NCBI GenBank assembly: GCA_963728205.1
Contig: CAVSIV010000002.1
Span: 32,001-96,000 of the forward strand
From: an uncultured Chloroflexia bacterium
GTDB lineage: Bacteria > Chloroflexota > Dehalococcoidia > UBA2979
Length of the DNA stretch: 64,000 bases
Direction: 5' to 3'
Part shown: positions 4,604 through 22,261 of the stretch, in pieces
Position numbering within the stretch: position 1 is the first letter of the stretch
How the letters are laid out: every line of letters starts with the position of its first letter
Notes under the pieces: model-generated
The model's database searches: none
Seen by the model: the letters and a program-made list of their open reading frames with translations, nothing else
What the model was told of the DNA's origin: nothing
Position numbers and translations under genes: made by a program

Positions 4604-4612
4604 GCGTGCTCC

Positions 4613-5563
4613 CTACTGGTACCGGATCCGCGGGTCGATCGCGCTGTACGTGAGATCGACGAGCAGGTTGACGGTGACGATCACGACCGCGAGCACGAGC
4701 ACGACGCCCTGCACCGACCAGTAGTCGCGCTGGAAGATCGCGCCGATGAAGTAGCGGCCCATCCCCGGGATGTTGAAGATCTGCTCCATGATCAGCGTGC
4801 CGCTGATCGCGAAGCCGACCTGCAGCCCAATCAGCGTGATGACCGGGATCATGGCGTTCTTCATCGCGTGGCGGAGGACGACGGCTGAGGCGGTCAGCCC
4901 CTTCGACTCGGCCGTGCGGATGTAGTCCTGCCGCATCACCTCGAGCATCATCGTGCGGGTCGTGCGCATCACGCTCCCGGTTCCGTTGATCCCGAGCAGC
5001 AGCGCCGGCCAGAAGAAGAAGTAGAGGTGCCGGACTGGACTGTCCGACCACCCGATGTATTTCAGCGGCGGCGCCCAGCCGAACCAGATCACCGGGAAGA
5101 TGACGAGGCAGAGCGCCGTCACGAAGTACGGCACGGAGAGCGCCAGGATGGCGAAGCTCCTGGCCACGTAGTCGACGTAGGTGTCCTGTTTCACCGCCGC
5201 GATGATGCCGACAGGGATGGCGACGAGCAGTCCGATCAGCACCGAGTAGGTCCCGAGCTCCAGCGTCACCGGCAGCCGCGTCTTGATCTCGCTGCCGACG
5301 GAGCGCTGCGTCCACGGCGATGAGCCGAGGTCACCGTGCGCCACACCTTCGAGGTAATGGACGAACTGGATCGGGATCGGCTGATCCAGCCCGAGATTCG
5401 CGCGCATCGCGTCCATGTCGGCCTGCGTCGCGTAGGGGCGCTCCGACATGATCATCTGAACGACGTCGCCCGGCACGAGCCGGACGATGGCGAACGTCAT
5501 GAAGATGACCAGGAAGATCGTGGGCACCGCCAGCCCGACCCGGCGGATGATGTAGCGCTGCAT
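4613..5563 (-). CDS. Dpp/Opp-type ABC permease (DppB/OppB family)
   Basis: ATG 5563 (MQRYIIRR); GDLGSS, QDYIRTAESKGL, HAMKNA, IDPRIRY. Confidence 0.93.
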   Translation of the reverse strand: MQRYIIRRVGLAVPTIFLVIFMTFAIVRLVPGDVVQMIMSERPYATQADMDAMRANLGLDQPIPIQFVHYLEGVAHGDLGSSPWTQRSVGSEIKTRLPVTLELGTYSVLIGLLVAIPVGIIAAVKQDTYVDYVARSFAILALSVPYFVTALCLVIFPVIWFGWAPPLKYIGWSDSPVRHLYFFFWPALLLGINGTGSVMRTTRTMMLEVMRQDYIRTAESKGLTASAVVLRHAMKNAMIPVITLIGLQVGFAISGTLIMEQIFNIPGMGRYFIGAIFQRDYWSVQGVVLVLAVVIVTVNLLVDLTYSAIDPRIRYQ

Positions 5564-5676
5564 CGTCGCCTCCTCGATCGGCCCCACGTGCGAGCCGATC
5601 CCCGTGACGGCGGGCCAGCGCGACTGGATGTTCGCGCCGGCCCGCCGCCGGGTGGGTGTCCGAGAGCGGCTCTGCG

Positions 5677-7359: not shown

Positions 7360-7470
7360 CCGTTCCCTCCTCTGGACACGCCGCGGCCGGTGGTGGCCGG
7401 CGGCGATATGCGCGGAGTTTATACACGGATGTAAAGCAGCGATGTGATAACGAGTCGACGAGCGAGGCGC

Positions 7471-8880
7471 CTACTGGCGCGTCTGCAGGAACGCCACCAG
7501 GGCGCTGAGCTGATCCGGCGACAGCGTCTTCGCGAACGCGGGCATGTTGTGCCCGCCGTTCAGGATCCGCCACGTCATCTGGTCCGACGACAGCCGCCGC
7601 CCGACGGTCGACAGGTTCGGCCCGCGGTCGCCGCCCACGCCGCCGATCGTGTGGCACGCGATGCAGCCGTGCGCCTGGAAGAGCTGCGCTCCGGTCGCCG
7701 GCTCGCCGCTCAGCGACGCCGTCACCGCGGTCGGTAGCGCCGGCGGCGGCAGGGCGGGCGACCACGGCGCGAGGTGCCCCTCGTAGATCAACGCGGCCAT
7801 CGCGATCACCAGCACGCCGACCGTGCCCACGGCCCACGGCCGGCGCCGCAGGCTGCGCTCGCCGCGCGGGAACACGAACGGCACGAGGAACAGCACTGCC
7901 GCGGCCAGCGCCGGTAGCCCGATGATCAGCCAGTCCTCCAGCTTCGGCGGGATCAGCGCCAGCAGCGCGAACAGCCAGAGGAAGTACCAGTCCGGCCGCG
8001 GGTCGGCGTGGAGGTTCGCCGGGTTCGCCCGCGCCGCCAGCGCCTTCGGCCCCACGAACACGGCGAGCGCCACCACGATCACGCCGATGCCGAGCGCGAA
8101 GACGACGTCGCGCCACGCCGCGTCCGGCCAGAACGGGATGCCGTCGCGGCGCAGCAACTCCTCGTACTCCTCCTCGTAGGTCTCCGGGTCCACCGTCGCG
8201 CCGGGCCGCGGCGGCTCGGAGATGCCGTGCCGCACGACCAGGAAGAGGTGCACGCCGACCGTCCCGAAGATCAGCGCCGGCAACAGGAAGACGTGCGTCG
8301 CGTAGAAGCGCGTCAGCGTGGCGCCACCGATGGTCTTGCCGGCGATCACGACGTGCGCGACGAGGTTGCCGATCACCGGCGTCCGCGCGCCCTGCTCGGC
8401 GGCGACCGCGATCGCCCAGTACGCGTCCTGGTCCCAGCGCAGCAGCTGACCGGTGAACGCCATGCCGAGCGTGAGGAACAGGAGTACGACGCCGGTCAGC
8501 CAGTTCAGCTCGCGCGGGAACTTGAACGCGCCCGTGAGGAAGACGCGGATCGCGTGGAGCGCGATCAGGATCACCATCGCCGACGCGCCCCAGTAGTGGA
8601 TGCCGCGGATCACGCGCCCGAGCGTCGCCGTCTGCGAGATGAACTGCAGACTGTCGTAGGCGTGCGCGGTGGTCGGCACGTACGTGAAGGCGAGCGCGAC
8701 GCCCGTGATCACCTGCATCACGAACGCCACGAGCGTCGCGCTGCCCAGCACGTACCACCAGTTCACGTTCCGCGGCACCGGGTGCTGGATGACCGGCAGC
8801 ATCCAGCGCGAGAACGCCAGCCGGTGGTCCAGCCACCGCGCCACGGCGCGTACCCATTCCGTCGCGGTGTGCATGGTCAC
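7471..8880 (-). CDS. Cytochrome b (b6 plus subunit IV) fused to C-terminal cytochrome c
   Basis: GTG 8880 overlapping the Rieske stop (or ATG 8874); RGIHYWGAS, LHAIRVF, YATHVF, GVHLF heme ligands; PDWY Qo motif; CIACH and MPAF. Confidence 0.93.
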   Translation of the reverse strand: MTMHTATEWVRAVARWLDHRLAFSRWMLPVIQHPVPRNVNWWYVLGSATLVAFVMQVITGVALAFTYVPTTAHAYDSLQFISQTATLGRVIRGIHYWGASAMVILIALHAIRVFLTGAFKFPRELNWLTGVVLLFLTLGMAFTGQLLRWDQDAYWAIAVAAEQGARTPVIGNLVAHVVIAGKTIGGATLTRFYATHVFLLPALIFGTVGVHLFLVVRHGISEPPRPGATVDPETYEEEYEELLRRDGIPFWPDAAWRDVVFALGIGVIVVALAVFVGPKALAARANPANLHADPRPDWYFLWLFALLALIPPKLEDWLIIGLPALAAAVLFLVPFVFPRGERSLRRRPWAVGTVGVLVIAMAALIYEGHLAPWSPALPPPALPTAVTASLSGEPATGAQLFQAHGCIACHTIGGVGGDRGPNLSTVGRRLSSDQMTWRILNGGHNMPAFAKTLSPDQLSALVAFLQTRQ

Positions 8881-9350
8881 GGCACCTGCAGCCCGCGCGT
8901 GAGCAGCTGCACGTGTCCGCCCTGCACGCGCGTCTCGTAGTGGAACAGCGCGTGCGGCGGCGGCCCGGCGGCCACCTCGCCATCCGCGTAGTACACGCCG
9001 CCGTGACACGGGCAGAGGAACAGCCCCGCGTCCTGGAGCCACGACACGGGACAGCCGAGGTGCGTGCAGTTCACCGCGAACGCCGTGAACCTGTCGTTCG
9101 AGTCGCGCCGCAGCCACGCGCCGATCGTCGCGGTCTGGCCGGCCCACGGCAGCGGCGACGGGTCCTGGAACGTGACCTCGACGGTCTTTCCCACCTCGAA
9201 CTGATCGACCGCCCCGACGTCCTCCCAGCGGTCCGCCGCCGGGTGGATCAGCGGCTCGAGCAGGTAGCCGACGATCGGCACGATCACGACCGCGCCGGCG
9301 AGGCCGCTGAGCCCGAGCATCGACACGTTGAGGAACCGCCTGCGGTTCAC
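8877..9350 (-). CDS. Rieske 2Fe-2S subunit of menaquinol:cytochrome c reductase
   Basis: GTG 9350; NRRRFL Tat anchor; CTHLGC and CPCHGG boxes. Confidence 0.93.
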   Translation of the reverse strand: MNRRRFLNVSMLGLSGLAGAVVIVPIVGYLLEPLIHPAADRWEDVGAVDQFEVGKTVEVTFQDPSPLPWAGQTATIGAWLRRDSNDRFTAFAVNCTHLGCPVSWLQDAGLFLCPCHGGVYYADGEVAAGPPPHALFHYETRVQGGHVQLLTRGLQVP

Positions 9351-9556
9351 GCGATCAGCTCCCGCACCCAGCCGCCGATCGCGAAGGCGATCAACGCGAG
9401 CCCCACGCCGGTGAACGCGTACGACGACGTGAAGCCGAACGCGAACAGCGTCACGCCACCGGCGAGCACGAACGGCCAGATCGAGGGCGCGGTCTCGCCG
9501 CCCTCGCGCGCAGCCGCCTGGTCCGCCGCCGGCTGGTCGACCGACTCGTACGTCAT
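9347..9556 (-). CDS. Small two-TM subunit (cytochrome c oxidase subunit IV-like)
   Basis: ATG 9556; PSIWPFVLA...GGWVRE; 4-bp overlaps with both neighbours. Confidence 0.7.
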   Translation of the reverse strand: MTYESVDQPAADQAAAREGGETAPSIWPFVLAGGVTLFAFGFTSSYAFTGVGLALIAFAIGGWVRELIA

Positions 9557-11856
9557 CGCAGCGACCCCAGGTAGACGACCGTGAAGATGACGATCCAGAC
9601 GGCATCGACGAAGTGCCAGTACGTCGCCACCGTCGTGACGCCGGCGTGCCCGCGACCGCGTCCCACGTCCCCGCGGAAGCCGAGTGCCGCGACCACGCAG
9701 AGCGCGATCACGCCGAGCGTGACGTGCAGCGCGTGGAAGCCCGTGAGCGTGAAGAACGCCGAGGTGAAGATGTTGCGCCCGAGCGTGACGTGATCGGCGT
9801 ACAGCGCGCGGAACTCCGTCGCCTGCCCGTAGAGGAACACCAGGCCGAGCACGATGGTCAGCACGATCAGCCACCGGAAGCCGCGCGCGTCGTCGCGTCG
9901 CAGCCGGAGCTCCGCGAGCACCGCGGTGCCGCTGCTCGCCCACAGCGCGAGGCTGAAGAGCGCGGTGCGCGGGACGTCGAGCGCGGATGCCGTGGGGCCG
10001 GCGGCCGGGTGCTGGTACAGGAGGTACGCGACGATCAGCGCGCCGAAGAAGATCGACTCGGTGCCGATGAACGCGAACATGCCGAGCACGGGGGCGGGGA
10101 AGCGCCGCGCGCCGTCGGTCACGTCTGAGTCGGTCTCCGTGGACGCGGCGACGGAGGCCGGCGTGACCCCGGCAGCGGGCGTGCCGGGATCGTCGCGGCG
10201 CGTATCGGCGTCGTTCGTCGCGCGGCCGTCGCGCTCGCGCGCGGACGCGAGGTCGGCGAGCGGCCGGAACGACCGAATCGGCGGCAGCGCGTCGAAGTTG
10301 TGCGCGGGCGGCGGCGAGGTGGTTGCCCACTCCAGCGTCGCGCCGTCCCACGGGTTGTCGCCCGCCCGCTCGCCGCTGCGGAGGCTCACCCAGATGTTCC
10401 ACAGCAGGAGCAGCACCGACACCGCGAGCACGAACGAACCGACGGTCTCGAGCAAATTGAGCGCAGCCCATCCGGGCAGGTCCGGGTAGGTGAAGACGCG
10501 GCGCGGCATCCCGAGCACGCCGAGCACGTGCATCGGGAGGAACGTGAGGTTGAAGCCGATGAACGTGAGCCAGAAGTGCCACTTGCCGATGCGCTCGCTC
10601 AGCATGCGGCCGGAGATCTTCGGGAACCAGTAGTAGGCGGCGGCGAGCATCGCGAGCGCGGTCCCGCCGAACAGCACGTAGTGGAAGTGGCCGACCACGT
10701 AGTAGCTGTCCGTTAGCTGCCGGTCCGCCGGAGCCAGCGCGAACTGGACGCCGGTGATGCCGCCGATGGTGAACATCGGGATGAACGCGATCGCGAACAG
10801 CATCGCGGTTGTGAAGCGCAGCTTGCCGCCCCACATCGTCGCCAGCCAGTTGAAGATCTTGATGCCGGTGGGGATCGCGATCAGCAGGCTCGCGGCCGAG
10901 AAGAAGCCGTTGAGCAGCGGGCTCATGCCGACGGCGAACATGTGGTGCGCCCACACGAGGAAGCTGAGGAAGCTGATGCCGATCCCCGCAGCGACGAGGA
11001 ACGCGTAGCCGAACGCCGGCTTGCCGGAGAAGGTCGCGATCACCTCGGTGATCATGCCGAAGGCCGGCAGCACCATGATGTAGACCTCGGGGTGCCCGAA
11101 GAACCAGAACATGTGCTGCCACAGCAGCGCGTCGCCGCCGCCGGCGACGTTGTAGAAGTCCGTGCCGAGGTGCCGGTCGAGGAACAGCGTGATCTGCGCC
11201 ATCGCCAGGCTCGGCATCGCGCCGATGATCAGCAGCGCGTCGATCAGCGACATCCAGACGAAGATCGGCATGCGCCCGAGCGTCATCCCCGGTGCGCGCT
11301 CGCTGATGATCGTGACGAGCAGGTTGATGCCGGTGGCGATCGTACCGGCGCTGGTCACAAGCAGGGCCAGGATCCAGTAGTCCGTGGCGGGGTTGCTGCT
11401 GAACGGGCGCTCGGTGAGCGGCGCGTACGCGAACCACCCCACGTTCGGGACGTCGCCCGGCAGGAACGAGTAGTAGAGCATCAGGCCGCCGAACAGCAGC
11501 AGCCAGTAGCTCATCGCGTTGAGACGCGGGAACGCCATGTCCCGCGCGCCGATCATGAGCGGGACGAAGTAGTTCGCGAAGCCGAGCAGCATCGGCATCA
11601 CGACGAGGAAGATCATCGTCGTCCCGTGCATCGTGAAGAGCGCGTTGTACGCCGCCGGCGACAGCACTCGCGCGTTCGGCAGCGCCAGCTGGATGCGCAT
11701 CACCAGCGCTTCGATGCCGCCCAGGGCGAAGAAGACCAGCGTCGTCACGAGGTACAGGACGCCGATCCGCTTGTGGTCGACGGTCGTCATCCACTCCCAC
11801 GCCCGGGAGCGCGTCGTGCCCCCGTCGCGCGCGCGTCCGACTGCGGTCGCCGCCAT
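9553..11856 (-). CDS. ctaD: Cytochrome c oxidase subunit I fused to subunit III
   Basis: TVDHKRIG, WFFGHPEVY (A1 type), VWAHH, HFH; after an acidic linker, a COX3 part with TGFHALHV and YWHFVDAVW. Confidence 0.95.
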   Translation of the reverse strand: MAATAVGRARDGGTTRSRAWEWMTTVDHKRIGVLYLVTTLVFFALGGIEALVMRIQLALPNARVLSPAAYNALFTMHGTTMIFLVVMPMLLGFANYFVPLMIGARDMAFPRLNAMSYWLLLFGGLMLYYSFLPGDVPNVGWFAYAPLTERPFSSNPATDYWILALLVTSAGTIATGINLLVTIISERAPGMTLGRMPIFVWMSLIDALLIIGAMPSLAMAQITLFLDRHLGTDFYNVAGGGDALLWQHMFWFFGHPEVYIMVLPAFGMITEVIATFSGKPAFGYAFLVAAGIGISFLSFLVWAHHMFAVGMSPLLNGFFSAASLLIAIPTGIKIFNWLATMWGGKLRFTTAMLFAIAFIPMFTIGGITGVQFALAPADRQLTDSYYVVGHFHYVLFGGTALAMLAAAYYWFPKISGRMLSERIGKWHFWLTFIGFNLTFLPMHVLGVLGMPRRVFTYPDLPGWAALNLLETVGSFVLAVSVLLLLWNIWVSLRSGERAGDNPWDGATLEWATTSPPPAHNFDALPPIRSFRPLADLASARERDGRATNDADTRRDDPGTPAAGVTPASVAASTETDSDVTDGARRFPAPVLGMFAFIGTESIFFGALIVAYLLYQHPAAGPTASALDVPRTALFSLALWASSGTAVLAELRLRRDDARGFRWLIVLTIVLGLVFLYGQATEFRALYADHVTLGRNIFTSAFFTLTGFHALHVTLGVIALCVVAALGFRGDVGRGRGHAGVTTVATYWHFVDAVWIVIFTVVYLGSLR

Positions 11857-12909
11857 TTACTTGAGCCCTTCGAGGTACGCGGTCAGCGCCTGCGCGTCGG
11901 CCGCGGAGAGGCCGAGGCTCGGCATAAGCACGCCGGGCTTCACCGCGTGCGGGTCCGTCAGCCAGCGCGTCATGTTGGCGGGCGTGTTGTCGAGTACGCC
12001 GCCCGCGATCAGCGCGCGGCTTCCGACGTGCGTCAGGTTGGGGCCGGCCGTCCCGCGCGCCCTGGTGCCCGCGACCGTGTGGCAGCTCGCGCACGCCAGC
12101 GAGGTGAACAGCTGCTCGCCCCGCGCCGCCGGCCCACCACTGGGCACGGCCGCCGGCGCCTCCTGCGCCGTGAGCCACGCCTGGAAGTCCTGCGGAGATT
12201 GCGCGACGACCTGCAACCGCATCCATGCGTGCTCGAGCCCGCAGAATTCCGTGCATGCGCCCTGGAACGTGCCGGCCCGGTCGAGCGTGATCGAGAGCGT
12301 GTTCGGCTTGCCTGGAATCGCGTCCTGTTTCCACCCGAAGCGCGGCACCCAGAAGCTGTGGATCACGTCGTCCGACGTGACCGTGATCGCGATCGGCGTG
12401 TTGATCGGCACGTGGAGCTCATCGGCCGTGACGACGCCCGACCCGGGGTAGCGGAACTCCCACCACCACTGGTGGCCGACGACCTGGATCTGCAGCGCGT
12501 TGGGGCCGGACGTCGCGTCGACGGTGCGCATCGTGCGCACCGAGATGACGAAGAGCGTCGCGACGATCGCGAGGGTCGCGAGCGTCCACGTGACCTCGAG
12601 GCGGCGGTTCCCGGCGACGTCGCTTGCTGCCTCGCGCACGCTCGCGCGGTAGTGGACGAGCACCCACCCGAGCAGCCCGACGACGATCAGGAACAGGATC
12701 GTGCCGATCGCGAACGAGATGCCGAAGAGCCCGAGGATCGCGTCGCCCCGCCCGGAGGCCGGTTGCATCGCGTCGGGCAGCGTCGCGCACCCGGTGGCGG
12801 TGAGCGCGATCGCGATCAGCGCGACCGCGCCCCGAGCGTGCTTCCTCGGTCCGAGCCCCGCGCCTCGGGAGGCACGGGAGCCACGCTGCCGGGATGGAGG
12901 GGCATCCAT
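11857..12909 (-). CDS. coxB: Cytochrome c oxidase subunit II with C-terminal cytochrome c (caa3 type)
   Basis: LTATGC lipobox; QWWWEFRY, DVIHSFW, CTEFCGLEHAWM CuA site; CASCH heme c. Confidence 0.95.
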   Translation of the reverse strand: MDAPPSRQRGSRASRGAGLGPRKHARGAVALIAIALTATGCATLPDAMQPASGRGDAILGLFGISFAIGTILFLIVVGLLGWVLVHYRASVREAASDVAGNRRLEVTWTLATLAIVATLFVISVRTMRTVDATSGPNALQIQVVGHQWWWEFRYPGSGVVTADELHVPINTPIAITVTSDDVIHSFWVPRFGWKQDAIPGKPNTLSITLDRAGTFQGACTEFCGLEHAWMRLQVVAQSPQDFQAWLTAQEAPAAVPSGGPAARGEQLFTSLACASCHTVAGTRARGTAGPNLTHVGSRALIAGGVLDNTPANMTRWLTDPHAVKPGVLMPSLGLSAADAQALTAYLEGLK

Positions 12910-13236
12910 GCGGCATCACTCTCGCCGGGGTGGGATGAGGCCAACGGATCCACCGTACTCGCCCCGTGCCACCCCGATGCCCGCGTGGACGGCGCCGTGC
13001 TCCTCGGTGCGCCGCGGCGCATTCCGGGCGATGCGGGCGCGCCCGACCAGGGCGCCGCGCTGCCCCGGCGTCCGCGAGCCCGACGCCGGGTCGCGCACTC
13101 GCGGGCGCGACCTGTGGCATCCTCGGCGCGATCCCGGCGACGGCCGGGCGCCGCGGAGACGGCGCGGCCGGACCGCTGCGTGCCCGCGCGCACCGCTCGG
13201 GGGACGTCGGGACTGCGGGCTGCGAGGAGGTGCGAC

Positions 13237-14262
13237 GTGCGAGTGACGGTCACCGGCGGCACGGGGTTCGTGGGCTCGCACACGGTGGCGGCTCTGCGCC
13301 GCGCCGGTCACGACGTCCGCCTGCTGGCGCGGACGCCCGAGCGCGTCGCCGACGCGCTGGGACCGGTGGGGGTCGACGCCGGCGCGGTCGACGTCGTCCC
13401 CGGCGATGTCACCGACGCCGCGAGCGTCGCACGCGCGGTGGACGGCGCCGACGCCGTCGTCCACGCCGCGTCCGTCTACTCGCTCGACCGCCGCGCCGCG
13501 GAGGCGATCGAGCGCACGAACGTGGAGGGCACGCGGATCGTCCTCGAGGCGGCACACCGCGCGGGCGCGCGGCGGATCGTGCACGTCTCCACGCTGGTGG
13601 CGCTGGCCGGCGTGCGCGGCGCGCGCGTTGGTCCCGACACCCCGCCGTTCGACGCCGTCGGCGCGTACCAGCGCTCGAAGGCGGCGTCCAATCGCGTGGC
13701 GCGCGCGATGCAGCACGCGGGCGCGCCCGTCCGCATCTCGTACCCCGGGATGGTGTGGGGCCCGCACGACCCGAACTTCGGCGAGACGAGCATCCTCGTG
13801 CGCAACGCGCTGCGGGGGCTGTTCCTCGTGCTGCCCGCGAGCACGTGGCCCGTCTGCGACGTACGCGACGTCGCGGAGCTGCACGTCGCGCTCGTCGAGC
13901 GCGACACGCCGGGATCCCGCTACCTCGCGCCGGTGCACACGCTGCGTGAACGCGAGCTCATGCACGCGATCGCGCAGGCCACCGGGCGCCGCCTGCCGGT
14001 CGTGCCGGTCCCGCGCACGCTCGCGCTGCTGGTCTCGCGCGCGTCGGACCTGGCGGCCCGCGCGACCCCGTTCGCGACGCCCTTCCCGTACGAGGGCACC
14101 TGGTTCGTCGCGCAGCGCGTGCGTCCCGACGACGAGTCCACCCGGCGCGACCTCGGCCTGCAGCCGCGTCCGCTGGCCGAGACGGTGTCCGACACGATCC
14201 GCTGGCTGGCGGATGTCGGGTACGTATCGCGACGCTTGGCGGGCCGCCTCGCGCCGTCCTGA
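13237..14262 (+). CDS. NAD-dependent epimerase/dehydratase (extended SDR)
   Basis: GTG 13237 after GAGGAGG; TGGTGFVG, HAAS, YQRSK. Confidence 0.9.
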   Translation: MRVTVTGGTGFVGSHTVAALRRAGHDVRLLARTPERVADALGPVGVDAGAVDVVPGDVTDAASVARAVDGADAVVHAASVYSLDRRAAEAIERTNVEGTRIVLEAAHRAGARRIVHVSTLVALAGVRGARVGPDTPPFDAVGAYQRSKAASNRVARAMQHAGAPVRISYPGMVWGPHDPNFGETSILVRNALRGLFLVLPASTWPVCDVRDVAELHVALVERDTPGSRYLAPVHTLRERELMHAIAQATGRRLPVVPVPRTLALLVSRASDLAARATPFATPFPYEGTWFVAQRVRPDDESTRRDLGLQPRPLAETVSDTIRWLADVGYVSRRLAGRLAPS

Positions 14263-14293
14263 GCTCGGTCCGGGCCTCCGGGCGCCCGCACCC

Positions 14294-14321
14294 TTGCGAA
14301 GGCGAGCGCGGCCGGTATGCT
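14294..14321 (+). promoter_or_regulatory. Possible sigma70-type promoter
   Basis: TTGCGA-N16-TATGCT upstream of the oxidase/DyP cluster. Confidence 0.3.
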
Positions 14322-14665
14322 GGCGCGAAGCGCAGAGGGCCGGCGCGAGGAGCCTCTATTGAGATCACCCCTTCGAGCCGCGGCCCGCCCTGCTCGCATG
14401 CGCCCGCGTCGCGACCCGACGTCGCACCGCGGCCCGGCGGGCTCGCGTTCTGCGGGCTCCCCCTGCTCGCCCGGCTCCACGGCCTCGCGCGTGATCATCG
14501 GCGACGGGCGGTTCGCCGACGACGCGTGCGAGGCGTGCGGACGAGCAGAGCTCGACCGGATCGGCCGCAGCCCGTGCTCGCTCGTCATCGTCCAGCATCA
14601 CCCGTTGGTCCGGGCCGCGCTGCGGGGCCCGGGGCGCGGGTACGCAGCGCGGAACGAGGATCGCC

Positions 14666-16099
14666 GTGACCGCCCCACCGCCGAACTCCCACCCCATGGG
14701 CCCCGCCGGCACCCCCGGCTCCGCTGACAGCGGATCGCACCTCGCCGCGCACGGCGAGCGCGTGACGAACTGGGGACGGGACGTCGTCTCGTTCCCCCGC
14801 TCGGTCGTGCAACCCGAGAGCGTCGAGGAGATCGTCGCGATCCTCCGCGATCGCGAGCGCTACCCGTCGCCGGTGCGGGCCGTCGGCTCGAACCACTCGA
14901 CCACGCGGTGCGGCGTCGCGGACGAGGGCACGCTCGTCAGCATGCGGCGCATGAACCGCATCCTGCACATCGGCGACGACACCATCACCGTGCAGGCGGG
15001 CGCGCTCTACATCGACGTCGCCAAGGAGCTCGAGCGCCGCGGGCTGCAGCTGTTCGTGAACGTCGAGCTCGGCAACCTGAGCATCGGCAGCGCGGCATGC
15101 GGCGGGACGAAGGATTCGTCGATGCCCGGCGAGTTCGGGCAGGTCGCCTCGTACGCCATCGCCATGAAGCTCGTGACGCCGAGCGGCGAGCTCGTCGAGA
15201 TCGACGAGTCGGATCCCGAGCTGCTCCAGGTCGCGCGCTCGAGCTACGGCCTGTTCGGCATCGTCTACGAGGTCACCTTCCGCGTGCAGCGGCTGCGCCC
15301 CCTCGTCGTCCACCACGAGACGTTCGACATCGACGAGTTCGCGACGCGCCTCCCGGAGCTGCGACGCCGCAACGAGGCGATGATGATGTACATCTCGCCG
15401 AACCTGCGGACCGTCACGGTCGAGTTCCGGCACTATCGCGACGCGGTGCTGAAGCGGCCGAGCCGCTGGCAGTGGCGGCTGCGCGACATGGTCTGGAGCA
15501 AGACGGCGCCGTCGTACGGACGGCTGGTGAGCATGCTGGTCCCGTCGCGCCGCGCGCGCTACTGGTTGGTCGACCGGCTCGACCAGGCCATCAACATCGT
15601 GCTCAGCCGATTCCTGAAGGGCGACAACACCTCGCCCGCCGACCAGATGATCCGCTACCCCTCGATCGGCGGCTTCAGCGCCTACACCTTCAGCATCTGG
15701 GCGTTCCCCGACGAGCGTTACGGCGACGTCCTCCGCGAGTACTTCGCGTGGGTCGAGGACTACTACCGGCAGACGGGCTATCGCTGCGACCTGCTGCACG
15801 TCGGCTACCGCATCGCGGAGGACACGAACTCGCTGTTCTCGTACACGTCTGAGGGCACGGTGATGACGATCGACCCGGTGTCGACCGGCGGGCCGGGCTG
15901 GGACCAGTTCCTCGCGGCGTACAACGACTGGTGCAGCTCGCGCGGCGGCATCCCGTTGTTCAACCAGACGAAGTGGCTGACCCGGGAGCAGGTCCGGCGC
16001 GCCTTCGGCTCGCGGCTCGAGCGCTTCGGCGCCTACCGGCGTCGCTACGACCCGGACGACCGCATGCTCAACGACTACTTCCGCGATTTGATCGTCTAG
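14666..16099 (+). CDS. FAD-linked oxidase, aldonolactone oxidase/VAO family
   Basis: NWG...P..VEEI, RAVGSNHS (His typical of covalent FAD), SYGLFGIV, DPDDRMLN; start may be ATG 14696. Confidence 0.85.
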   Translation: MTAPPPNSHPMGPAGTPGSADSGSHLAAHGERVTNWGRDVVSFPRSVVQPESVEEIVAILRDRERYPSPVRAVGSNHSTTRCGVADEGTLVSMRRMNRILHIGDDTITVQAGALYIDVAKELERRGLQLFVNVELGNLSIGSAACGGTKDSSMPGEFGQVASYAIAMKLVTPSGELVEIDESDPELLQVARSSYGLFGIVYEVTFRVQRLRPLVVHHETFDIDEFATRLPELRRRNEAMMMYISPNLRTVTVEFRHYRDAVLKRPSRWQWRLRDMVWSKTAPSYGRLVSMLVPSRRARYWLVDRLDQAINIVLSRFLKGDNTSPADQMIRYPSIGGFSAYTFSIWAFPDERYGDVLREYFAWVEDYYRQTGYRCDLLHVGYRIAEDTNSLFSYTSEGTVMTIDPVSTGGPGWDQFLAAYNDWCSSRGGIPLFNQTKWLTREQVRRAFGSRLERFGAYRRRYDPDDRMLNDYFRDLIV

Positions 16100-16213
16100 C
16101 GATCGGCGCGTGGGACGCCCCGGCGTCCCCGCCCACGTGTGCGCGGGGGCGGTCTGCGGGCCGGGTCGTCGGGAGGCTGGCGCATCCCGCGCGCCCGGGG
16201 GAGGTCATTCGCG

Positions 16214-16714
16214 ATGGTGGAGTTACCCGGCACGGACGCGCGTGCCGTCGCCCGCAGCTACTTCGACCGCCTGATCAACCAGCACGACCTGGACTTCGCG
16301 GACGAGCTCTTCGATCCGGCGATCGCCTTCCGCGACCCGGCGATCCCCGGGGGTGGCGTCGACGGCATCCCGCAGCTGAAGCGCTTCTTCGCGACCTTCT
16401 TCGCGACGTTCCCCGACGTGCACTTCGCCGTCGACGACTTCTTCGCGGAGGACGACCGCGTGGCGGTGCGCTTCACCTGGACGGGGACGCATCGCGCGCG
16501 CCTCTTCGGGGTCACGGTGGCGCGGCGCAGCGTGAGCGTGCCCGGCATCGATATCTTCCACGTCGCGAACGGCCGCATCACCGAGGTCCGCGTGGCGTTC
16601 GACCCGCTTGATCTCATCGAGCAGATGACCGGCCTGCGCGGGCTGCTCGCCCGCTTCGCGATCCCGCTCGTGCGCGCGCTGTGGCTCGGCCGGCTGCGGG
16701 GGCGTCCGCGATGA
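16214..16714 (+). CDS. SnoaL-like ester cyclase (NTF2 fold)
   Basis: ATG 16214 after GGAGG; FPDVHFAVDD..AEDDRVAVRFTWTGTH, GRITE. Confidence 0.85.
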   Translation: MVELPGTDARAVARSYFDRLINQHDLDFADELFDPAIAFRDPAIPGGGVDGIPQLKRFFATFFATFPDVHFAVDDFFAEDDRVAVRFTWTGTHRARLFGVTVARRSVSVPGIDIFHVANGRITEVRVAFDPLDLIEQMTGLRGLLARFAIPLVRALWLGRLRGRPR

Positions 16715-17970
16715 CGCACCAGGTCGCGCTCACGGTGCGCGCCGCCGTCGGTCCCGGGCAAGCGGACGCGCTGCGCGCGCTGCTCGCGCAGATGCAGCGC
16801 GCGGGCGCGTGCAACGACGTGATCCGCTTCAGCGACCTGCCGGCGACGCACTTCGCCCGGCTGCTCGTCGTCGACGACGAACCGGTCCCGGGTGCCGCGT
16901 CGCTGCTGCTGATGCTCGACTGCGACGCGCCCGCCGGCGACCGCCTGCGGGAGTTCGCGCGCGTCGCGGGCGCAGGCATGGATCGTGTCTTCGGCCACTG
17001 CGTGGACTATCCGCGCGGGACGGTCACTGAGGCGCACCGCGTGCGCTTCCTGCGCACGCACGTCGTCGGGTCGCAGGTGATCTACATCCACCGCGTCGGG
17101 CGCACGCTCGAGCAGGTGCGCCAGGAGCGGCAGCTGCGCGAGGCGATCCGCGACCTCGTCGACCGGTCGGCGCAGGACTGGGCCGGTCGGGGTGCCCGGG
17201 AGGTCCGCGAGACGATCCGGGCGTTCGTCGCGTCGCGCCCGGACCTCGCCCGGGCAATGGACCCGCCCGCCCGTCCCGGGCTGCGCTTCCGCGCGCGCGA
17301 GGCGCTGCAGCGGTTCGGCCTTCCGCTTGTGCTCGTCCTGCTGTCGCCGGTCGTCGCCCCGCTGCTCGTGCTCGTGTTCCTCTGGCTGCGGCTCGAGGAG
17401 CTCCGCGGGCCGGAGCCGGACATCCGGCTCGATCACGGGCGGCTGCGCGCACTGACGGATGCGGAGGACTTCGGCGCCCAGAACGCGATCACCACGGTCG
17501 CGCCGCTGAAGCCCGGCCGGTTCTGGCGCCTGACCGCGCCGCTCTTCCTCCAGGCCGCCGCGTTCGCGACGCGGCACGTGTTCAACCACGACAACCTCGC
17601 CGGGCTGCGCACCGTGCACTTCGCGCGGCTGATGCGGCTCGACGACGGGCGGTTCATGTTCACGAGCTACTACGACGGCAGCCTCGAGAGCTACATGGAC
17701 GACTTCGTCGACCAGGTGGCGTGGGTGTTGAACACCGGGTTCGGCAACGAGGACGGCTACCCGAAGACGCGCTGGCTCTTCTTTGCCGGCGCCCATCGCG
17801 AGCAGCAGTTCAAGGCGTTCCTGCGCGGGCACCAGGTGGCGACGCAGTACTGGTACTCGGCGTACCCGGACCTCACCGCGACGAATGTCGACAACAACTC
17901 CGCGATCCGCGACGGGCTGCGCGGCGACATGGACGACGAGGCGGCGGCCGCATGGTTGCGCCGCCTGTGA
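16711..17970 (+). CDS. Uncharacterised DyP-associated protein with two HFAR-motif domains and a central TM segment
   Basis: ATGA overlap with SnoaL; THFARL...FGHCVDYP and VHFARL...FGNEDGYP; hydrophobic GLPLVLVLLSPVVAPLLVLVFLW. Confidence 0.8.
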   Translation: MTHQVALTVRAAVGPGQADALRALLAQMQRAGACNDVIRFSDLPATHFARLLVVDDEPVPGAASLLLMLDCDAPAGDRLREFARVAGAGMDRVFGHCVDYPRGTVTEAHRVRFLRTHVVGSQVIYIHRVGRTLEQVRQERQLREAIRDLVDRSAQDWAGRGAREVRETIRAFVASRPDLARAMDPPARPGLRFRAREALQRFGLPLVLVLLSPVVAPLLVLVFLWLRLEELRGPEPDIRLDHGRLRALTDAEDFGAQNAITTVAPLKPGRFWRLTAPLFLQAAAFATRHVFNHDNLAGLRTVHFARLMRLDDGRFMFTSYYDGSLESYMDDFVDQVAWVLNTGFGNEDGYPKTRWLFFAGAHREQQFKAFLRGHQVATQYWYSAYPDLTATNVDNNSAIRDGLRGDMDDEAAAAWLRRL

Positions 17971-18015
17971 CGGACCGGCCGCACGCCGCGGTCGAGGGGA
18001 CGACGGGCAACGACG

Positions 18016-19419
18016 ATGGCTGAACGGCTCGAAGTTGGGGACATCCAGGGGCTGGTTGCGCGCGGGTACGGGACGCTGGCCGCCGCGTGCTACGTGCTGC
18101 TGCGCGTCGCGGACGCCGGCGCCGCGCGCGCGTGGCTCGGCGCGCTCGCCGGCGACCTCACGTCGGCGGAGAGCCGGCCCGACGCGACCGCCGTCAACGT
18201 CGCGTTCACGCGCGCGGGCCTCGAGCGCCTCGGTGTCGGGGCGGCCACGCTGAGCGCGTTCGCCCCGCAGTTCGTCGAGGGCCTCGCGCAGCCGCACCGC
18301 TCACGCATCCTCGGCGACGACGGCGACAGCGCGCCCGAGCGCTGGCGCTGGGGCGGGCCCGGCACGCCGTCCGTCGACCTCGTGCTGATGCTGTTCGCCG
18401 CGGACGGGGCGTCCCTTGACGGTCTCTACGACGCGCACGCCGGCCGCCTCGCCGGGGCCGGCATCGAGCAGCTGGCGCGACTCGACACAACGTATCTCGG
18501 CGGACGCGAGCACTTCGGCTTCAGGGACGGCGTGTCGCAGCCGACCATCGATGGGCTCTCGCGGCAGGACCGTCCCGCGAACACGGTGCAGCCCGGTGAG
18601 TTCGTCCTCGGATACCGCAACGAGTACGACGTCGCGGCGGAGCCCATCGCGGTGCCCGCGGGCACCAATCGCGCCGGCGCGCTCGCGGGCGTCGGTGGCG
18701 ACCTCGGGCGCAACGGCTCCTACCTCGTGTTCCGGCAGCTCGAGCAGGACGTGGCTGGCTTCTGGCGCACCGTCGACGCGCTCACCCGCGACGCGGGCGG
18801 CGGTTCCGACCCGGCGGCGCGCACGCGCCTCGCGGCCAAGATGGTCGGCCGCTGGCCGAGCGGCGCGTCGCTCGCGCTGGCGCCGGATCACGACAATCCC
18901 GCGCGCGCGGACGCGAACGACTTCGCGTACCACCAGCAGGACCCGGACGGCCTCGCGTGCCCGATCGGCTCGCACGTTCGTCGCACGAACCCGCGCGACT
19001 CGCTCGAGCCGAAGCCCGGCTCGAAGCAGTCCGTGGCGGCGGCGAACCATCACCGCCTGCTCCGTCGCGGCCGCAGCTACGGCCCGCCGCTTGCGATCCC
19101 CGAGATCTTCGACGCGAACGCCGGCACCGCGGCGCAGGAGCGCGGGCTGCACTTCATCTGCCTCGTCGGCGACATCGCGCGCCAGTTCGAGTTCGTCCAG
19201 CACACGTGGGTGAACAACCCGAAGTTCGGCGGCCTCTATGACGACGGGGATCCGCTGATGGCGCCCCACGGCGATACCGGGGCGACGTTCAGCGAGCAGG
19301 CGGAACCCGTCGTGCGACGCCACGGCGGCCTGCCGCGCTTCGTGGCCGTGCGCGGCGGTGCCTACTTCTTCCTCCCGGGCATTCGCGCCGTGCGCTACCT
19401 CGCCGCGCTCGGGGGGTGA
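18016..19419 (+). CDS. DyP-type heme peroxidase
   Basis: DIQGLV, HFGFRDGVSQP (GxxDG), NGSYLVFRQLEQDV, SHVRRTNPR (proximal His), LLRRGRSYG (distal Arg). Confidence 0.93.
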   Translation: MAERLEVGDIQGLVARGYGTLAAACYVLLRVADAGAARAWLGALAGDLTSAESRPDATAVNVAFTRAGLERLGVGAATLSAFAPQFVEGLAQPHRSRILGDDGDSAPERWRWGGPGTPSVDLVLMLFAADGASLDGLYDAHAGRLAGAGIEQLARLDTTYLGGREHFGFRDGVSQPTIDGLSRQDRPANTVQPGEFVLGYRNEYDVAAEPIAVPAGTNRAGALAGVGGDLGRNGSYLVFRQLEQDVAGFWRTVDALTRDAGGGSDPAARTRLAAKMVGRWPSGASLALAPDHDNPARADANDFAYHQQDPDGLACPIGSHVRRTNPRDSLEPKPGSKQSVAAANHHRLLRRGRSYGPPLAIPEIFDANAGTAAQERGLHFICLVGDIARQFEFVQHTWVNNPKFGGLYDDGDPLMAPHGDTGATFSEQAEPVVRRHGGLPRFVAVRGGAYFFLPGIRAVRYLAALGG

Positions 19420-19469
19420 AGACGGCTGGGTGCTCGGCGCCGGGCGCCGCGCCCGGCGCGACGAGCCGG

Positions 19470-20141
19470 TCAGGCGTTCGCGACGGGATCCTGTGCGCGC
19501 TGCTTCGCGCTTTCGATGCGCGAGATCAGGTCGTGCAGCGGCTTCGTTCCGCCTCCAATCACGAGGCCGGTCACGAGGATGTCGATCGGCACGCTCGGCC
19601 GTCGGTCGGCGATGGCGGCGATCAGGTAGATGCCGATCGTCGCGCTGGCGAGCATCCCGAGGACGGTCGCGGCGGACCACATGATGTACGCGCGGGCGCG
19701 CTGGCGCCGGTCCAGCCGGTCGCGCGCATCGGCCGCGGCCTGCCACCGGGCAGGATCGTCGGGCGCGTTCATGGCCGCGGCCATCGCCACCTCCATCTCG
19801 CCCCGCGCGGTGCGCGACTCCATGACGAACGACGCGAACGGCTCGAGCAGCCGCTCGGTTGCCTGCGCGGCGATGTAGAGCAGCGCGAAGGCGCTCGTGT
19901 CGGACGCCACGCGGATCGGCGCCGCGTGAACGCTCTCCCAGATGGCAATGCTGACGGCGTAGCCGACGATCACCACCAGCGTGGCGATACCGGGCGCGAC
20001 GGCGTCCGGGTGGCGGTACCAGGGCTCCTTGCCCCGCGCGGGAGGCGTCGAGGCAGCAGCAACTGCGCGCGCGCGCGTCCCGGTCGCGTCGCGGCTGGCA
20101 TCGGGGTTCACGACGAGTGTCACGGCATCCCGCCTTCCCAT
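19470..20141 (-). CDS. Hypothetical integral membrane protein
   Basis: About four hydrophobic segments; ERLLEP and TGLVIGGGTKPLHDLI motifs; start uncertain (ATG 20141 or GTG 20123). Confidence 0.7.
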   Translation of the reverse strand: MGRRDAVTLVVNPDASRDATGTRARAVAAASTPPARGKEPWYRHPDAVAPGIATLVVIVGYAVSIAIWESVHAAPIRVASDTSAFALLYIAAQATERLLEPFASFVMESRTARGEMEVAMAAAMNAPDDPARWQAAADARDRLDRRQRARAYIMWSAATVLGMLASATIGIYLIAAIADRRPSVPIDILVTGLVIGGGTKPLHDLISRIESAKQRAQDPVANA

Positions 20142-20539
20142 GACGGCCCGCGCGCATCTTAGCCGGGCGGCGCTCGGCGCGATGGATTGCGGCCGGACGC
20201 GGACGGGCGCCCACGGGCGCAGTCGAGGCGCCCGGCGCGGTCGAGGCGCCCCGGCGCGGTCGGCCGCGCGGTGCGCGGTGGGCGTGGCGCGCACGCAAAT
20301 GCTGTGCTCGCGGCCCCGGCGGGCGCCGAGCGCGATGCGATCGGACGAGCGGTTGAGGGTCCGGAGCGGCGCCTGAAGGCGGCCCGCAAGCTCAACCGTT
20401 GCGAGCTTCACGGCGTGATGCTCGATGAAGTCGGCGCGGCGCTCCCGTGGTCGCCGCTTATTTCGCCGGCCTCGGCCTGATGCATCGCCAGCCGGCGCCC
20501 GCGGCCGGACTCTGATCGTCCACCGTTCTATTATCTGTT

Positions 20540-20568
20540 TATATCTATTGCAGATATATCATCAATAG
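20540..20568. promoter_or_regulatory. AT-rich promoter/operator with overlapping inverted repeats
   Basis: TATATCT-N5-AGATATA (20540-20558) and CTATTG-N12-CAATAG (20545-20568). Confidence 0.5.
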
Positions 20569-20623
20569 TTGCGAAATCTGACCGAAACAATGCGCTGGCA
20601 TCATCCCGCGGCCCGGCTCCCCG

Positions 20624-22261
20624 TTGGCTCGGTCGTGGACCTGGAAACCGGCGAGGACCTACGGGCGCGCGATCGGGGGATGCTTGTCTCGACTTCGTGG
20701 ACGCTTCTTCGCGTCCGCCGTCCTTTCGGCCCTGGTGGCCGCACTGGCAATCGGCGCAGTGTCGGCTTCGCAGGGGAGTCAGTGGAATACGGCGGGCGGA
20801 GACCGCCAGAACACGCGCTTCCAGAATTCAGAGCACCAGCTGAGTCCATCCAACGTCCCCGGTCTCACGCCGAAGTGGGTGTTCGAGACGGGCGGGGACG
20901 TGTCGGCGACGCCTGCGGTCGACGGAGAGACCGTGTACTTCCCCGACTGGGCAGGCAACCTCTACGCGGTGGACCGGCAGACCGGTGCGCTCAAGTGGCA
21001 GGCGAATGTTGCCGCGGTCACGGGTGTCCCCGGAGACAAGGCTCGGGCCACGCCGGCGGTGACGAGTGACAGGGTCATCGTCGGTACGCAGGGCCCGTTC
21101 GGTGGTGGCGGCAAGGTCCTGGCGTTCGACAAGTTCTCCGGCGCGCTCGTGTGGAGCACACAGCTGGAGACGAACCCGGCCGCGATCATCACGCAGTCGG
21201 CGACCGTGTTCGACGGGGTGGTCTACGTCGGAGTCGCTTCCATGGAGGAGGCGCTCGCCGCGATCGTCCCCGGATACCAGTTGTCGTTCCGGGGAAGCAT
21301 GGCCGCCCTCGATCTCGAGACCGGTCAGATCCTGTGGAAGACGTACACCGCGCCGGAAGGCTTTACCGGAAACGCGGTCTGGGGCAGCTCGCCCGCGATC
21401 GACACGAAGCGCGGCCAGCTGTACATCGCCACCGGCAACAACTACTCGGTGCCGCAGTCGGTGCTCGACTGCGTCGCCGCCGCCGGAGACGATCAGGGCG
21501 CGATCGCTGCATGCGTTCCGGCGGATAACCATTTCGACTCGATCCTGGCGCTGGACCTCAAAACGGGCGCCATCCGCTGGGCCACTCGAGCGCTGCCGTA
21601 CGATGCCTTCACGGTGAACTGTGTTCCGGGCTTGATCCCCGGTGTCCCCGGTTTCCCCGACGAGTGCCCCGATCCCGCCGGGCCGGACTACGACTTCGGT
21701 CAGGCCCCGGCTCTCTTCACGACCACTGCTCACGGCAAGCCGCGTGAGCTGGTGGGCGCCGGTCAGAAGAGCGGGCAGTACTGGGCGCTGAATCCCGACA
21801 CGGGCGCCGTCGTCTGGGTGACGCAGGCGGGTCCCGGTGGCCTTGCCGGCGGCCTGCAGTGGGGCTCCGCCGTCGACGGAACTCGCGTCTACACGGCGAA
21901 CGCCAACACGGATTCGAAGGCATGGACGCTTCCGAACGGAACGGCGACGACGCAGGGCGTGTGGAGCGGGCTGGACGCAAGCACCGGCGAGGTGCTGTGG
22001 CAGACGACGCCACCGAGCGGGGGCGGTACGTCCGGTCCGGTCACGACCGCAAACGGAGTCGTCTTCGGGTGCTCCCTCGATCCCGCCGGACACATGTACG
22101 CGCTCGACGCGGCGTCTGGCGCCGTCCTGTGGGATTTCGCGAGCGGCGGTTCGTGCATCTCCGGTGCGGCGATCTCGAACGGCATGTTGTTCTGGGGCTC
22201 GGGGTACACGAACCTCGGGACCTCGAACAACAAGCTGTACGCGTTCGGACTTGCGAACTGA
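20624..22261 (+). CDS. Secreted PQQ-like beta-propeller protein (polyvinyl-alcohol dehydrogenase-like)
   Basis: Signal-like hydrophobic stretch; repeated A(L/V)D..TG...W blades; GPDYDFG, GQKSG and GGLQWG motifs; start uncertain. Confidence 0.85.
   Translation: MARSWTWKPARTYGRAIGGCLSRLRGRFFASAVLSALVAALAIGAVSASQGSQWNTAGGDRQNTRFQNSEHQLSPSNVPGLTPKWVFETGGDVSATPAVDGETVYFPDWAGNLYAVDRQTGALKWQANVAAVTGVPGDKARATPAVTSDRVIVGTQGPFGGGGKVLAFDKFSGALVWSTQLETNPAAIITQSATVFDGVVYVGVASMEEALAAIVPGYQLSFRGSMAALDLETGQILWKTYTAPEGFTGNAVWGSSPAIDTKRGQLYIATGNNYSVPQSVLDCVAAAGDDQGAIAACVPADNHFDSILALDLKTGAIRWATRALPYDAFTVNCVPGLIPGVPGFPDECPDPAGPDYDFGQAPALFTTTAHGKPRELVGAGQKSGQYWALNPDTGAVVWVTQAGPGGLAGGLQWGSAVDGTRVYTANANTDSKAWTLPNGTATTQGVWSGLDASTGEVLWQTTPPSGGGTSGPVTTANGVVFGCSLDPAGHMYALDAASGAVLWDFASGGSCISGAAISNGMLFWGSGYTNLGTSNNKLYAFGLAN

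Follow-up and report, generated by a model that had tools for sequence, protein, structure and literature searches.

A class V DyP peroxidase and a partner family without a name: a putative membrane-tethered holoenzyme with a lineage-specific add-on in an uncultured Chloroflexota bacterium

What does a haem peroxidase do when the gene beside it encodes a protein that no family model recognizes? The question is raised by a 64,000-nucleotide (nt) stretch of DNA from an uncultured Chloroflexota bacterium (the window), in which genes for a flavoenzyme, a SnoaL-like protein, an 'HFAR' partner protein and a DyP haem peroxidase follow one another between positions 14,666 and 19,419. An original prediction, made from the sequence, took these four genes for a self-contained intracellular cascade in which an oxidase feeds peroxide to the DyP. 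Our analysis points elsewhere: HFAR and the DyP are very probably an obligate pair, and the flavoenzyme and SnoaL genes are a lineage-specific add-on found in one small clade, not part of the conserved unit. The wider reading has the region encode a haem peroxidase holoenzyme of the cytoplasm that is tethered to the membrane, together with a tailoring add-on specific to the lineage and a substrate relay between the parts; to this reading we give about even chances. The genes concerned, including a possible fifth member of the cassette and a segment of HFAR to which we return, are:

~13243..14262 (start approximate), plus strand: extended short-chain dehydrogenase/reductase (SDR) of the NAD-dependent epimerase/dehydratase family (PF01370), possible fifth cassette gene
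14666..16099, plus strand: flavoenzyme of VAO/ALO type (PF01565 and PF04030 matches), with GTG 14666 as the called start
16214..16714, plus strand: SnoaL-like NTF2-fold protein, 166 amino acids (PF07366, PF12680)
16711..17970, plus strand: HFAR partner protein, 419 amino acids, outside Pfam and NCBIfam
17302..17403, plus strand: hydrophobic helix-break-helix of HFAR, residues ~198-231 (hydropathy and model)
18016..19419, plus strand: class V (C-type) DyP haem peroxidase, 467 amino acids (TIGR01413)

The four principal genes, which the original prediction had described as co-oriented, are borne out by their plus-strand open reading frames (ORFs), by their codon composition and by homologues of all four in other phyla. 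The GC content of the window is ~70%, and in each gene GC at third codon positions (GC3) is 0.93-0.96 against 0.47-0.54 at second positions; such an excess in all four ORFs is the coding pattern of real genes in a 70% GC genome.

We scanned one genome per species for HFAR, which returned 436 confirmed stretches, and kept and examined the best 80, with neighbouring genes called by GC3-based gene models in flanks of up to 8 kb on each side. A DyP gene lies directly downstream of HFAR in 79 of these 80 loci, and in the 80th the contig ends 101 nt past HFAR. The DyP orthologues at these loci are 46-60% identical and mostly start no more than a few tens of bases past HFAR; at one locus (L058) the match is to the C-terminal part of the DyP only. 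The pairing extends to gene fusion: all 19 HFAR homologues of at least 735 amino acids are HFAR-then-DyP fusions, two of them also carrying a P450, and DyP segments occur in 8 of the 149 top HFAR representatives (P0140-P0288) that we screened for fusions. A neighbourhood survey of HFAR homologues had been suggested with the original prediction, and its outcome, a DyP that is adjacent or fused, upholds the partnership. Fusions on RefSeq plasmids carry the annotations 'Dyp-type peroxidase domain-containing protein' (1,443 amino acids) and 'cytochrome P450' (1,620 amino acids). On plasmid pNL2 of Novosphingobium aromaticivorans (445320-449651), the 1,443-amino-acid DyP fusion with the HFAR C half has a SARP-family regulator gene directly before it and a RES/Xre toxin-antitoxin pair after it.

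Structure prediction of the DyP together with its partner, also suggested earlier, likewise came out in favour of the pairing. The HFAR-DyP complex scored ipSAE values of 0.87, 0.87 and 0.88, with at least 95% contact agreement between runs and partner pLDDT values of at least 86 (own alignments), while none of three controls rose above 0.00; in a benchmark, 116 of 157 solved complexes and 2 of 215 mismatched pairs attained the same mark. HFAR is predicted to dock on the DyP face around Trp398, where its contact surface takes in residues 388-408 and 428-435 (the contact residues include 388-389, 392-393, 396-397, 401-403, 405-406 and 408); contacts on the HFAR side include its signature residues 322-327. 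The model thus supports HFAR-DyP binding, short of demonstrating it.

The DyP itself is by sequence an ordinary class V member, for which haem binding and peroxide turnover are predicted. It matches NCBIfam TIGR01413 (Dyp_perox_fam) at 114.2 bits (cut-off 100.5) and falls under the Pfam cut-offs (PF20628, 18.8 vs 20; PF21105, 18.9 vs 27.5), and among solved structures DrDyP (8RE3) comes closest to it, at E 4.8e-54 over residues 5-465. Four of its residues matter here:

18526..18528, plus strand: Asp171, of the FGFRDG motif
18973..18975, plus strand: His320, proximal
19063..19065, plus strand: Arg350, distal
19207..19209, plus strand: Trp398, at the predicted HFAR interface

The first three align to their counterparts in DrDyP and AauDyP, which in the latter we take to be D168, H304 and R332; a residue count confirmed the numbering of R332 and of W377. 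Among 18 family members His320 and Arg350 are invariant and Asp171 is present in at least 90%, so that the catalytic motifs are indeed intact, as had been claimed. Trp398 is the counterpart of AauDyP Trp377 in a pairwise alignment. Trp377 is the class V radical site and is conserved in subclasses V1-V4 (Yoshida and Sugano 2022, PMC9719856; this and the other papers that we cite by PMC number are cited for the portions of their text available to us). The surface Trp398 would then correspond to the tryptophan that serves long-range electron transfer in fungal class V DyPs.

DrDyP of Deinococcus radiodurans (8RE2/8RE3) and Amycolatopsis DyP2 (4G2C) share with the window's enzyme the superfamily, the class, the Asp/Arg/His set and the surface tryptophan. 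These solved enzymes were studied as single proteins, whereas the DyP of the window has HFAR as a partner. The available text on DrDyP mentions no partner, and the terms 'operon', 'adjacent' and 'neighbour' have zero occurrences in it (PMC10820274).

HFAR starts at ATG 16711, a start supported by its homologues (the ORF before start choice spans 16681-17970), and it returned zero matches in Pfam and NCBIfam, even at E<=10 and E<=1, and nothing below E 0.75 in a sequence search of the PDB. All 30 of its matches in the ESM Atlas, of which the top three scored 0.96, belong to 'hypothetical protein' clusters that share no Pfam family. The family is large, with at least 720 word-sharing homologues, labelled 'hypothetical' in their sources, and with 3,567 representative clusters at E<=1e-3, a number that falls to 1,345 at E<=1e-30. 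An AF2 model (pLDDT 81.3, pTM 0.81) consists of two beta-alpha-beta-beta halves with long helices between them. Its closest fold match in a VIA structure search is WhiE-ORFI (9LMN, ABM/SchA-like; Z 13.8, root-mean-square deviation 4.2 Å over 222 residues), followed by the polyketide decarboxylase Abx(+)O (9LTX; Z 9.9) and then other tandem and single ABM barrels; Foldseek on the PDB returned the same top matches with poor TM-scores (0.31-0.38). The N half and the C half are themselves related (hhalign probability 98%, E 2.9e-13, 143 columns). By prediction, then, HFAR is an internally duplicated ABM/SchA-like alpha+beta barrel, of a family without a name. It resembles WhiE-ORFI and Abx(+)O in predicted fold but is only 10-12% identical to them, lacks a Pfam match, and adds a hydrophobic hairpin insert and a DyP partner.

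That insert bears on where the pair would work. Hydrophobic N-termini are present in none of the four proteins; the absence of evident signal peptides noted in the original prediction thus holds, and the proteins appear from N-terminal hydropathy to be intracellular, as it had placed them. The sole strongly hydrophobic stretch among them is residues ~198-231 of HFAR, between its two barrel halves, with a 19-residue Kyte-Doolittle maximum of 2.96, over which the model has helices at 191-210 and 212-232. A segment that crossed the membrane once would divide the barrel between its two sides, and we therefore read the segment as a monotopic hairpin, a putative membrane anchor. Of the 'membrane partner' proposed earlier the hydrophobic segment therefore stands, while the model has it as a hairpin in an ABM-like barrel, not as a plain membrane protein. 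Half-size HFAR homologues also occur on long contigs: 9 of the 11 examined are the C half, beginning with the hydrophobic segment, and the other two look like gene-call artefacts running into the DyP.

HFAR could also have another role than that of holding a substrate. Each half carries the HFAR motif with an invariant histidine on its second beta-strand (H47 and H303), and H47, C97, H289 and H303 are invariant in all 16 aligned members, as is a YDGSLESY motif. If H47 and H303 ligated haem or a metal, HFAR would be a cofactor-bearing redox or haem-handling partner that passes electrons or haem to the DyP; the homology of its two halves fits such a role, and alpha+beta barrels of the superfamily bind haem in several modes (PMC4835899, in whose available text the words neighbour, transmembrane and gene context are absent). 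The entry titles of WhiE-ORFI and Abx(+)O, however, do not describe haem proteins, and the histidines lie outside the predicted contact residues. We consider a cofactor-bearing HFAR unlikely and continue with HFAR as the putative tether and docking partner of the DyP.

A third position in the unit is the slot directly upstream of HFAR. A protein of ~150 amino acids that we call WQ, after its motif WQGKVF...DYS.TSLVAHWIRDEIR, is present in 68 of the 80 loci and in 58 stands directly upstream of HFAR and co-oriented with it. WQ has no Pfam or NCBIfam family; its model is an eight-stranded beta-barrel that matches 4MVE at Z 12.0 and then many lipocalins at Z 5-7, and WQ-HFAR fusions occur in 2 of the 149 top representatives. 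This canonical form, WQ-HFAR-DyP, is carried by many Streptomyces and Amycolatopsis strains. The genome of the window holds a second, canonical locus on another contig (L085, G000:C6:642000-658000, positions 4265-13848), which reads in order:

4265-6307: P450-like protein
6359-6808: WQ
7000-8309: HFAR paralogue
8324-9835: DyP
9844-13848: fusion of TPR and animal haem peroxidase, 1,334 amino acids

The HFAR paralogue of this locus matches in two frames, switching near 7704-7713, either because of a frameshift, which would make it a pseudogene, or through an error in the assembly.

The 12 loci without WQ are eight with a SnoaL gene together with L015, L016, L038 (no upstream flank) and L041. The SnoaL protein of the window matches PF07366 at 102.5 bits (cut-off 28.4) and also PF12680, scores 51 bits against TIGR02096 (ketosteroid isomerase-related), under the cut-off, and has putative polyketide or ester cyclases as PDB relatives (best 3KKG, E 6.5e-9). 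Its homologue-supported start is ATG 16214, behind a GGAGG ribosome-binding site, and not GTG 16139, with which the unrefined ORF (16139-16714) begins. Its stop overlaps the HFAR start in the ATGA of 16711-16714, where, as had been noted earlier, ATG 16711-16713 and TGA 16712-16714 share bases; to judge from this overlap, SnoaL is translationally coupled to the HFAR gene. SnoaL and WQ are unrelated (hhalign probability 3.7%) and occupy one position, and SnoaL is therefore a non-homologous replacement in the WQ slot. An NTF2-fold gene in the place of a lipocalin-like gene amounts to a natural experiment on the role of the third subunit.

The flavoenzyme follows SnoaL closely in its distribution. 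It is present in 7 of the 80 loci (L001, L002, L004-L007 and L010), and SnoaL in the same seven and in L003, whose contig begins 150 nt upstream of HFAR. At six loci both genes stand directly upstream of HFAR and co-oriented with it, and in L002, L004, L005, L006 and L010 they overlap or abut each other. In a quick IQ-TREE search of 79 HFAR sequences (L004 and L038 excluded as partial), the eight SnoaL-type rows group together in a single clade (SH-aLRT 100), whose members come from Chloroflexota, Acidobacteriota, Dormibacterota and Actinomycetota. Nocardioides insulae DSM 17944 and Marmoricola sp. URHB0036 are culturable carriers of the SnoaL/flavoenzyme variant. The nearest relative of the window, L001, has its flavoenzyme and SnoaL genes 5.8 kb from the pair and on the opposite strand; a CHAT-domain protein of 845 amino acids (L001:5112-7649, minus strand) is encoded between this flavoenzyme-SnoaL-SDR module and HFAR-DyP.

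Could the two modules be neighbours by chance, with no functional relation? Their separation in L001, the other contexts in which the flavoenzyme is found, and the 114 nt between the flavoenzyme and SnoaL genes in the window would all fit. Yet the arrangement has been kept in one clade through 47-61% HFAR divergence and across four phyla, the SnoaL gene takes precisely the place of WQ and shares bases with the start codon of HFAR, and WQ is missing from all eight loci of the same clade. We regard chance adjacency as very improbable and take the flavoenzyme-SnoaL pair as a clade-specific add-on.

What would the flavoenzyme contribute? It carries the domains PF01565 FAD_binding_4 (75 bits, cut-off 26.4) and PF04030 ALO (25.4 bits, cut-off 23.1); conservation starts at about residues 24-33, and the true start may therefore lie downstream of GTG 14666. 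Against the sugar 1,4-lactone oxidase equivalogs it scores well below the cut-offs (TIGR01678, 98.8 vs 396.8 bits; TIGR01679, 101.4 vs 292.25 bits). Its nearest solved relative is L-galactono-1,4-lactone dehydrogenase (GalDH; 8QNR, E 3.9e-22). His77 (14894-14896), in a GSNHS motif that is invariant in 13 of 13 orthologues, aligns to the GalDH leucine at the position of covalent flavin adenine dinucleotide (FAD) attachment, so that the histidyl-FAD type assigned in the original prediction is supported by alignment, with a histidine present for the 8-alpha-N1-histidyl link. The enzyme thus resembles GULO, ALO and GalDH (PMC11099136) in its FAD_binding_4 and ALO domains and in this histidine, and differs from them in falling under the NCBIfam lactone-oxidase cut-offs and in that the FAD domain alone aligns well to GalDH.

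These features are the basis of the peroxide cascade, in which the flavoenzyme would be an O2-reducing oxidase feeding H2O2 to the DyP, SnoaL would steer the product and the four genes would suffice by themselves. A histidine for covalent FAD is a trait of the H2O2-producing GULO/ALO branch (PMC11099136), the clade has kept the arrangement over four phyla, and other flavin oxidoreductases, GMC and BBE, also occur near the pair. A glycine at the GalDH Ala113 gatekeeper position permits O2 reactivity; an ungapped alignment places not this glycine but Val133 of the flavoenzyme there, in a register made uncertain by a one-residue indel nearby and by a conserved VNVELGNL motif. The distribution of the flavoenzyme also cuts both ways. 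At E<=1e-40 orthologues are found in 5 of 401 genomes of the window's phylum, its own included, and in the four others they are 55-60% identical and occupy five loci, none with SnoaL, HFAR, DyP or WQ in flanks of up to ~8 kb (two contigs are short). In three of these five (L092, L094, L096) the flavoenzyme directly follows an animal haem peroxidase gene, in two of the three with a cupin and an SDR behind it, and the recurring partner is therefore 'a peroxidase', of another family; in the other two a GMC oxidoreductase adjoins it. The proposed co-occurrence of oxidase and SnoaL with the DyP pair thus holds in 7-8 of the 80 loci, one clade in which the genes mostly overlap or abut, and fails beyond it: in 68 of 80 loci the pair occurs with WQ and without this oxidase, the oxidase occurs without a DyP, and L001 holds the two modules apart. 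A self-contained four-gene unit is accordingly not what most of the relatives have. A supply of peroxide by the flavoenzyme would be plausible, and the full cascade is in our view doubtful, if possible; we keep to the reading of a conserved peroxidase unit with a tailoring add-on.

The SDR gene upstream may belong to that add-on. Its PF01370 match has E 8.7e-32; its best NCBIfam match is TIGR03466 HpnA, a hopanoid-associated sugar epimerase, at 183 bits, under the cut-off of 368, and it scores 96 bits against the sterol demethylase SdmB. A 49%-identical homologue adjoins the flavoenzyme in L001, and in L002, L004, L005, L006, L007 and L010 a classical SDR stands directly upstream of the flavoenzyme. 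In the window the SDR-to-flavoenzyme gap is 403 nt, and the flavoenzyme-to-SnoaL gap is the 114 nt given above.

Further genes recur around the pair in its relatives, with the following counts among the 80 loci:

animal haem peroxidase (PF03098): 59 of 80
protein of ~400 amino acids without a family: 54 of 80
small hydrophobic protein of ~130 amino acids (sm129): 51 of 80
weakly patatin-like family: 14 of 80
GMC oxidoreductase: 7 of 80
clear patatin-like lipase: 1 of 80 (L002)
BBE-type FAD oxidase: 1 of 80

The sm129 protein looks like a small membrane protein. It was also tried as a distant relative of SnoaL or WQ and rejected (hhalign probabilities 0.4% and 0.1%). The ~400-amino-acid protein, whose family ranges over ~390-470 amino acids (for example L022:10725-11888), is encoded on either strand and has no Pfam or NCBIfam match. 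Within the SnoaL clade, the animal haem peroxidase is found together with sm129 in L002, L004, L007 and L010. Neither is present in the window, L001 or L006, and the upstream flank of L005 is too short to show them. The P450-fusion layout is found in Sulfitobacter plasmid genes annotated 'cytochrome P450' as well as in the two long homologues.

Because the neighbours in relatives are a cyclooxygenase-family haem peroxidase, a small membrane protein, a patatin-like lipase and P450 fusions, the substrates would be derived from fatty acids or other membrane lipids. A relay can be sketched on this basis. Peroxide would oxidize the DyP haem, and the oxidizing equivalent would pass by way of Trp398 to a hydrophobic substrate that HFAR holds at the membrane; the small upstream protein, SnoaL here and WQ elsewhere, would deliver the substrate or process the reactive product. 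The flavoenzyme and the SDR would carry out prior alcohol or carbonyl steps on the same lipid-like substrate, and the flavoenzyme, if reactive with O2, would also supply H2O2 to the DyP. We hold these steps with far less confidence than the obligate pairing itself. Still more broadly, we tentatively suggest that HFAR, a small ligand binder (WQ or SnoaL) and a class V DyP form an undescribed three-subunit membrane holoenzyme, in which the partner would take up the oxidizing equivalent at the DyP surface tryptophan and use it on a bound lipid-derived substrate, as part of a widespread oxylipin-like pathway of bacteria with a cyclooxygenase-family enzyme, lipases and P450s, a proposal that may well prove wrong.

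The same parts could serve defence in place of synthesis, with HFAR tethering the DyP so that it reduces H2O2 or lipid hydroperoxides at the bilayer and WQ or SnoaL shuttling damaged lipids. A cytoplasmic DyP without a signal peptide, a partner with a hydrophobic hairpin, and lipocalin-like and NTF2-like ligand binders in attendance would suit such a protective peroxidase, as would the housekeeping surroundings of the window's locus, where cytochrome oxidase, rimM, rpsP and ffh, and also gap and eno, are encoded. The conserved companions, however, are oxygenating (the animal haem peroxidase and the P450 fusions) and not suppliers of reductant, the neighbourhoods show no recurrent thiol or NAD(P)H reductase as a partner, and DrDyP, the closest solved DyP, is inactive at pH 7.5 (PMC10820274). 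A protective role is thus improbable, and the synthetic relay is the one we weigh further.

Several points count against this tethered holoenzyme with its relay. All structural statements come from predictions, and haem binding, FAD binding, membrane binding and activity are likewise predicted. The predicted interface shows no enrichment of invariant columns on either protein, HFAR having 11 vs 8.1 expected (P=0.16) and the DyP 5 vs 7.9 expected (P=0.93). Were the hydrophobic segment to cross the membrane as one helix, the bilayer would separate the two halves of HFAR, in contradiction to the barrel model. Three members of the wider cluster (animal haem peroxidase, small membrane protein and ~400-amino-acid protein) are missing from the window, so that the case for lipid substrates is taken over from relatives. 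The sample, made up of the best 80 among 436 confirmed loci, leans toward close relatives, the nearest of these, L001, has its flavoenzyme and SnoaL genes apart from the pair, and with gaps of 114 nt and 403 nt in the window, a single transcript over all the genes may exist but is putative.

How does this arrangement compare with known ones? The oxidase GlxA is reportedly linked to its DyP, DtpA, through peroxide, and other DyPs with dedicated partners are the encapsulin cargo DyPs and that of EfeUOB. In all three systems, as here, a DyP acts with a genetically linked partner, but those partners are unrelated to HFAR and those DyPs are of other classes; the scanned neighbours include no encapsulin, EfeO, EfeU or copper oxidase. 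GlxA and DtpA of Streptomyces lividans are a genetically linked oxidase and DyP, the latter a secreted Tat substrate (PMC4736821), and this precedent for an oxidase-DyP combination means that the view of the present one as lacking any described pathway does not stand as it was put. For the pair itself, our full-text literature search, which did not extend to supplements, found no paper on the HFAR family, on WQ or on the DyP/WQ/animal-peroxidase cluster. The nearest description is subclass V4, P450-transmembrane-DyP fusions whose middle is given, in the text available, only as 'some transmembrane regions' (PMC9719856). Two of the 19 long homologues and the Sulfitobacter plasmid genes share this layout; the linker of the present fusions, however, contains the C-terminal half of HFAR, and the form in the window is unfused and without a P450. 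By our rating HFAR-DyP adds a third kind of partner system for DyPs to those of encapsulin and EfeUOB.

Tandems of haem enzymes are also known from oxylipin synthesis, as in the cyanobacterial COX-like 10S-dioxygenase with its catalase-related partner. Fungal Ppo proteins are peroxidase-P450 fusions of oxylipin synthesis (PMC9719856). The relatives of our locus resemble such tandems in clustering a cyclooxygenase-family gene, a DyP as second haem enzyme, P450 domains and lipase-like genes; the difference is that the window has no animal haem peroxidase gene and that the present cluster is known from genes alone.

What DyP peroxidases do in nature has long been an open question, and their physiological substrates are called unknown in the available text of two accounts (PMC10820274, PMC9719856). 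A near-constant and sometimes fused partner, predicted to sit over the radical-forming tryptophan, offers a concrete handle on that role. DyPs of this kind may have been assayed without their real subunit, and the three-subunit holoenzyme, if true, would provide the first physiological substrate channel of class V DyPs.

A promoter scan of the locus returned zero promoter-like sites, an Rfam scan of 12800-20700 at E<=0.1 zero matches, and the two weak terminator-like sites, both within the HFAR gene, do not exceed the count in shuffled sequence. The 120-nt stretch 16097-16216 across the flavoenzyme-SnoaL spacer folds no differently from shuffled sequence (z -0.03). Among sequencing runs searched for sampled words of the locus, no RNA run was listed as containing them, and a single DNA run contained 8% of them.

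Several neighbours of the locus are of interest in themselves. On the minus strand at 19470-20411, convergent with the DyP gene, lies a 313-amino-acid ORF with GC3 0.88, hydrophobic C-terminal segments and no family match, which is not kept beside HFAR-DyP in the 80 related loci. The plus strand of 20624-22261 encodes a PQQ-like beta-propeller protein (PF13360/PF01011) with GC3 0.83, below that of neighbouring genes, which is not seen beside the HFAR-DyP pair elsewhere. The enolase ORF (31236-33176, minus strand) is 646 amino acids long with enolase domains from residue 217, so that either its start is over-called or it has a long N-terminal extension. Finally, the minus strand of 7471-12909 encodes a set of unusual respiratory fusions: COX1-COX3 (767 amino acids), a COX2 that ends in a cytochrome c domain, and cytochrome b joined to a cytochrome c domain (558 amino acids).

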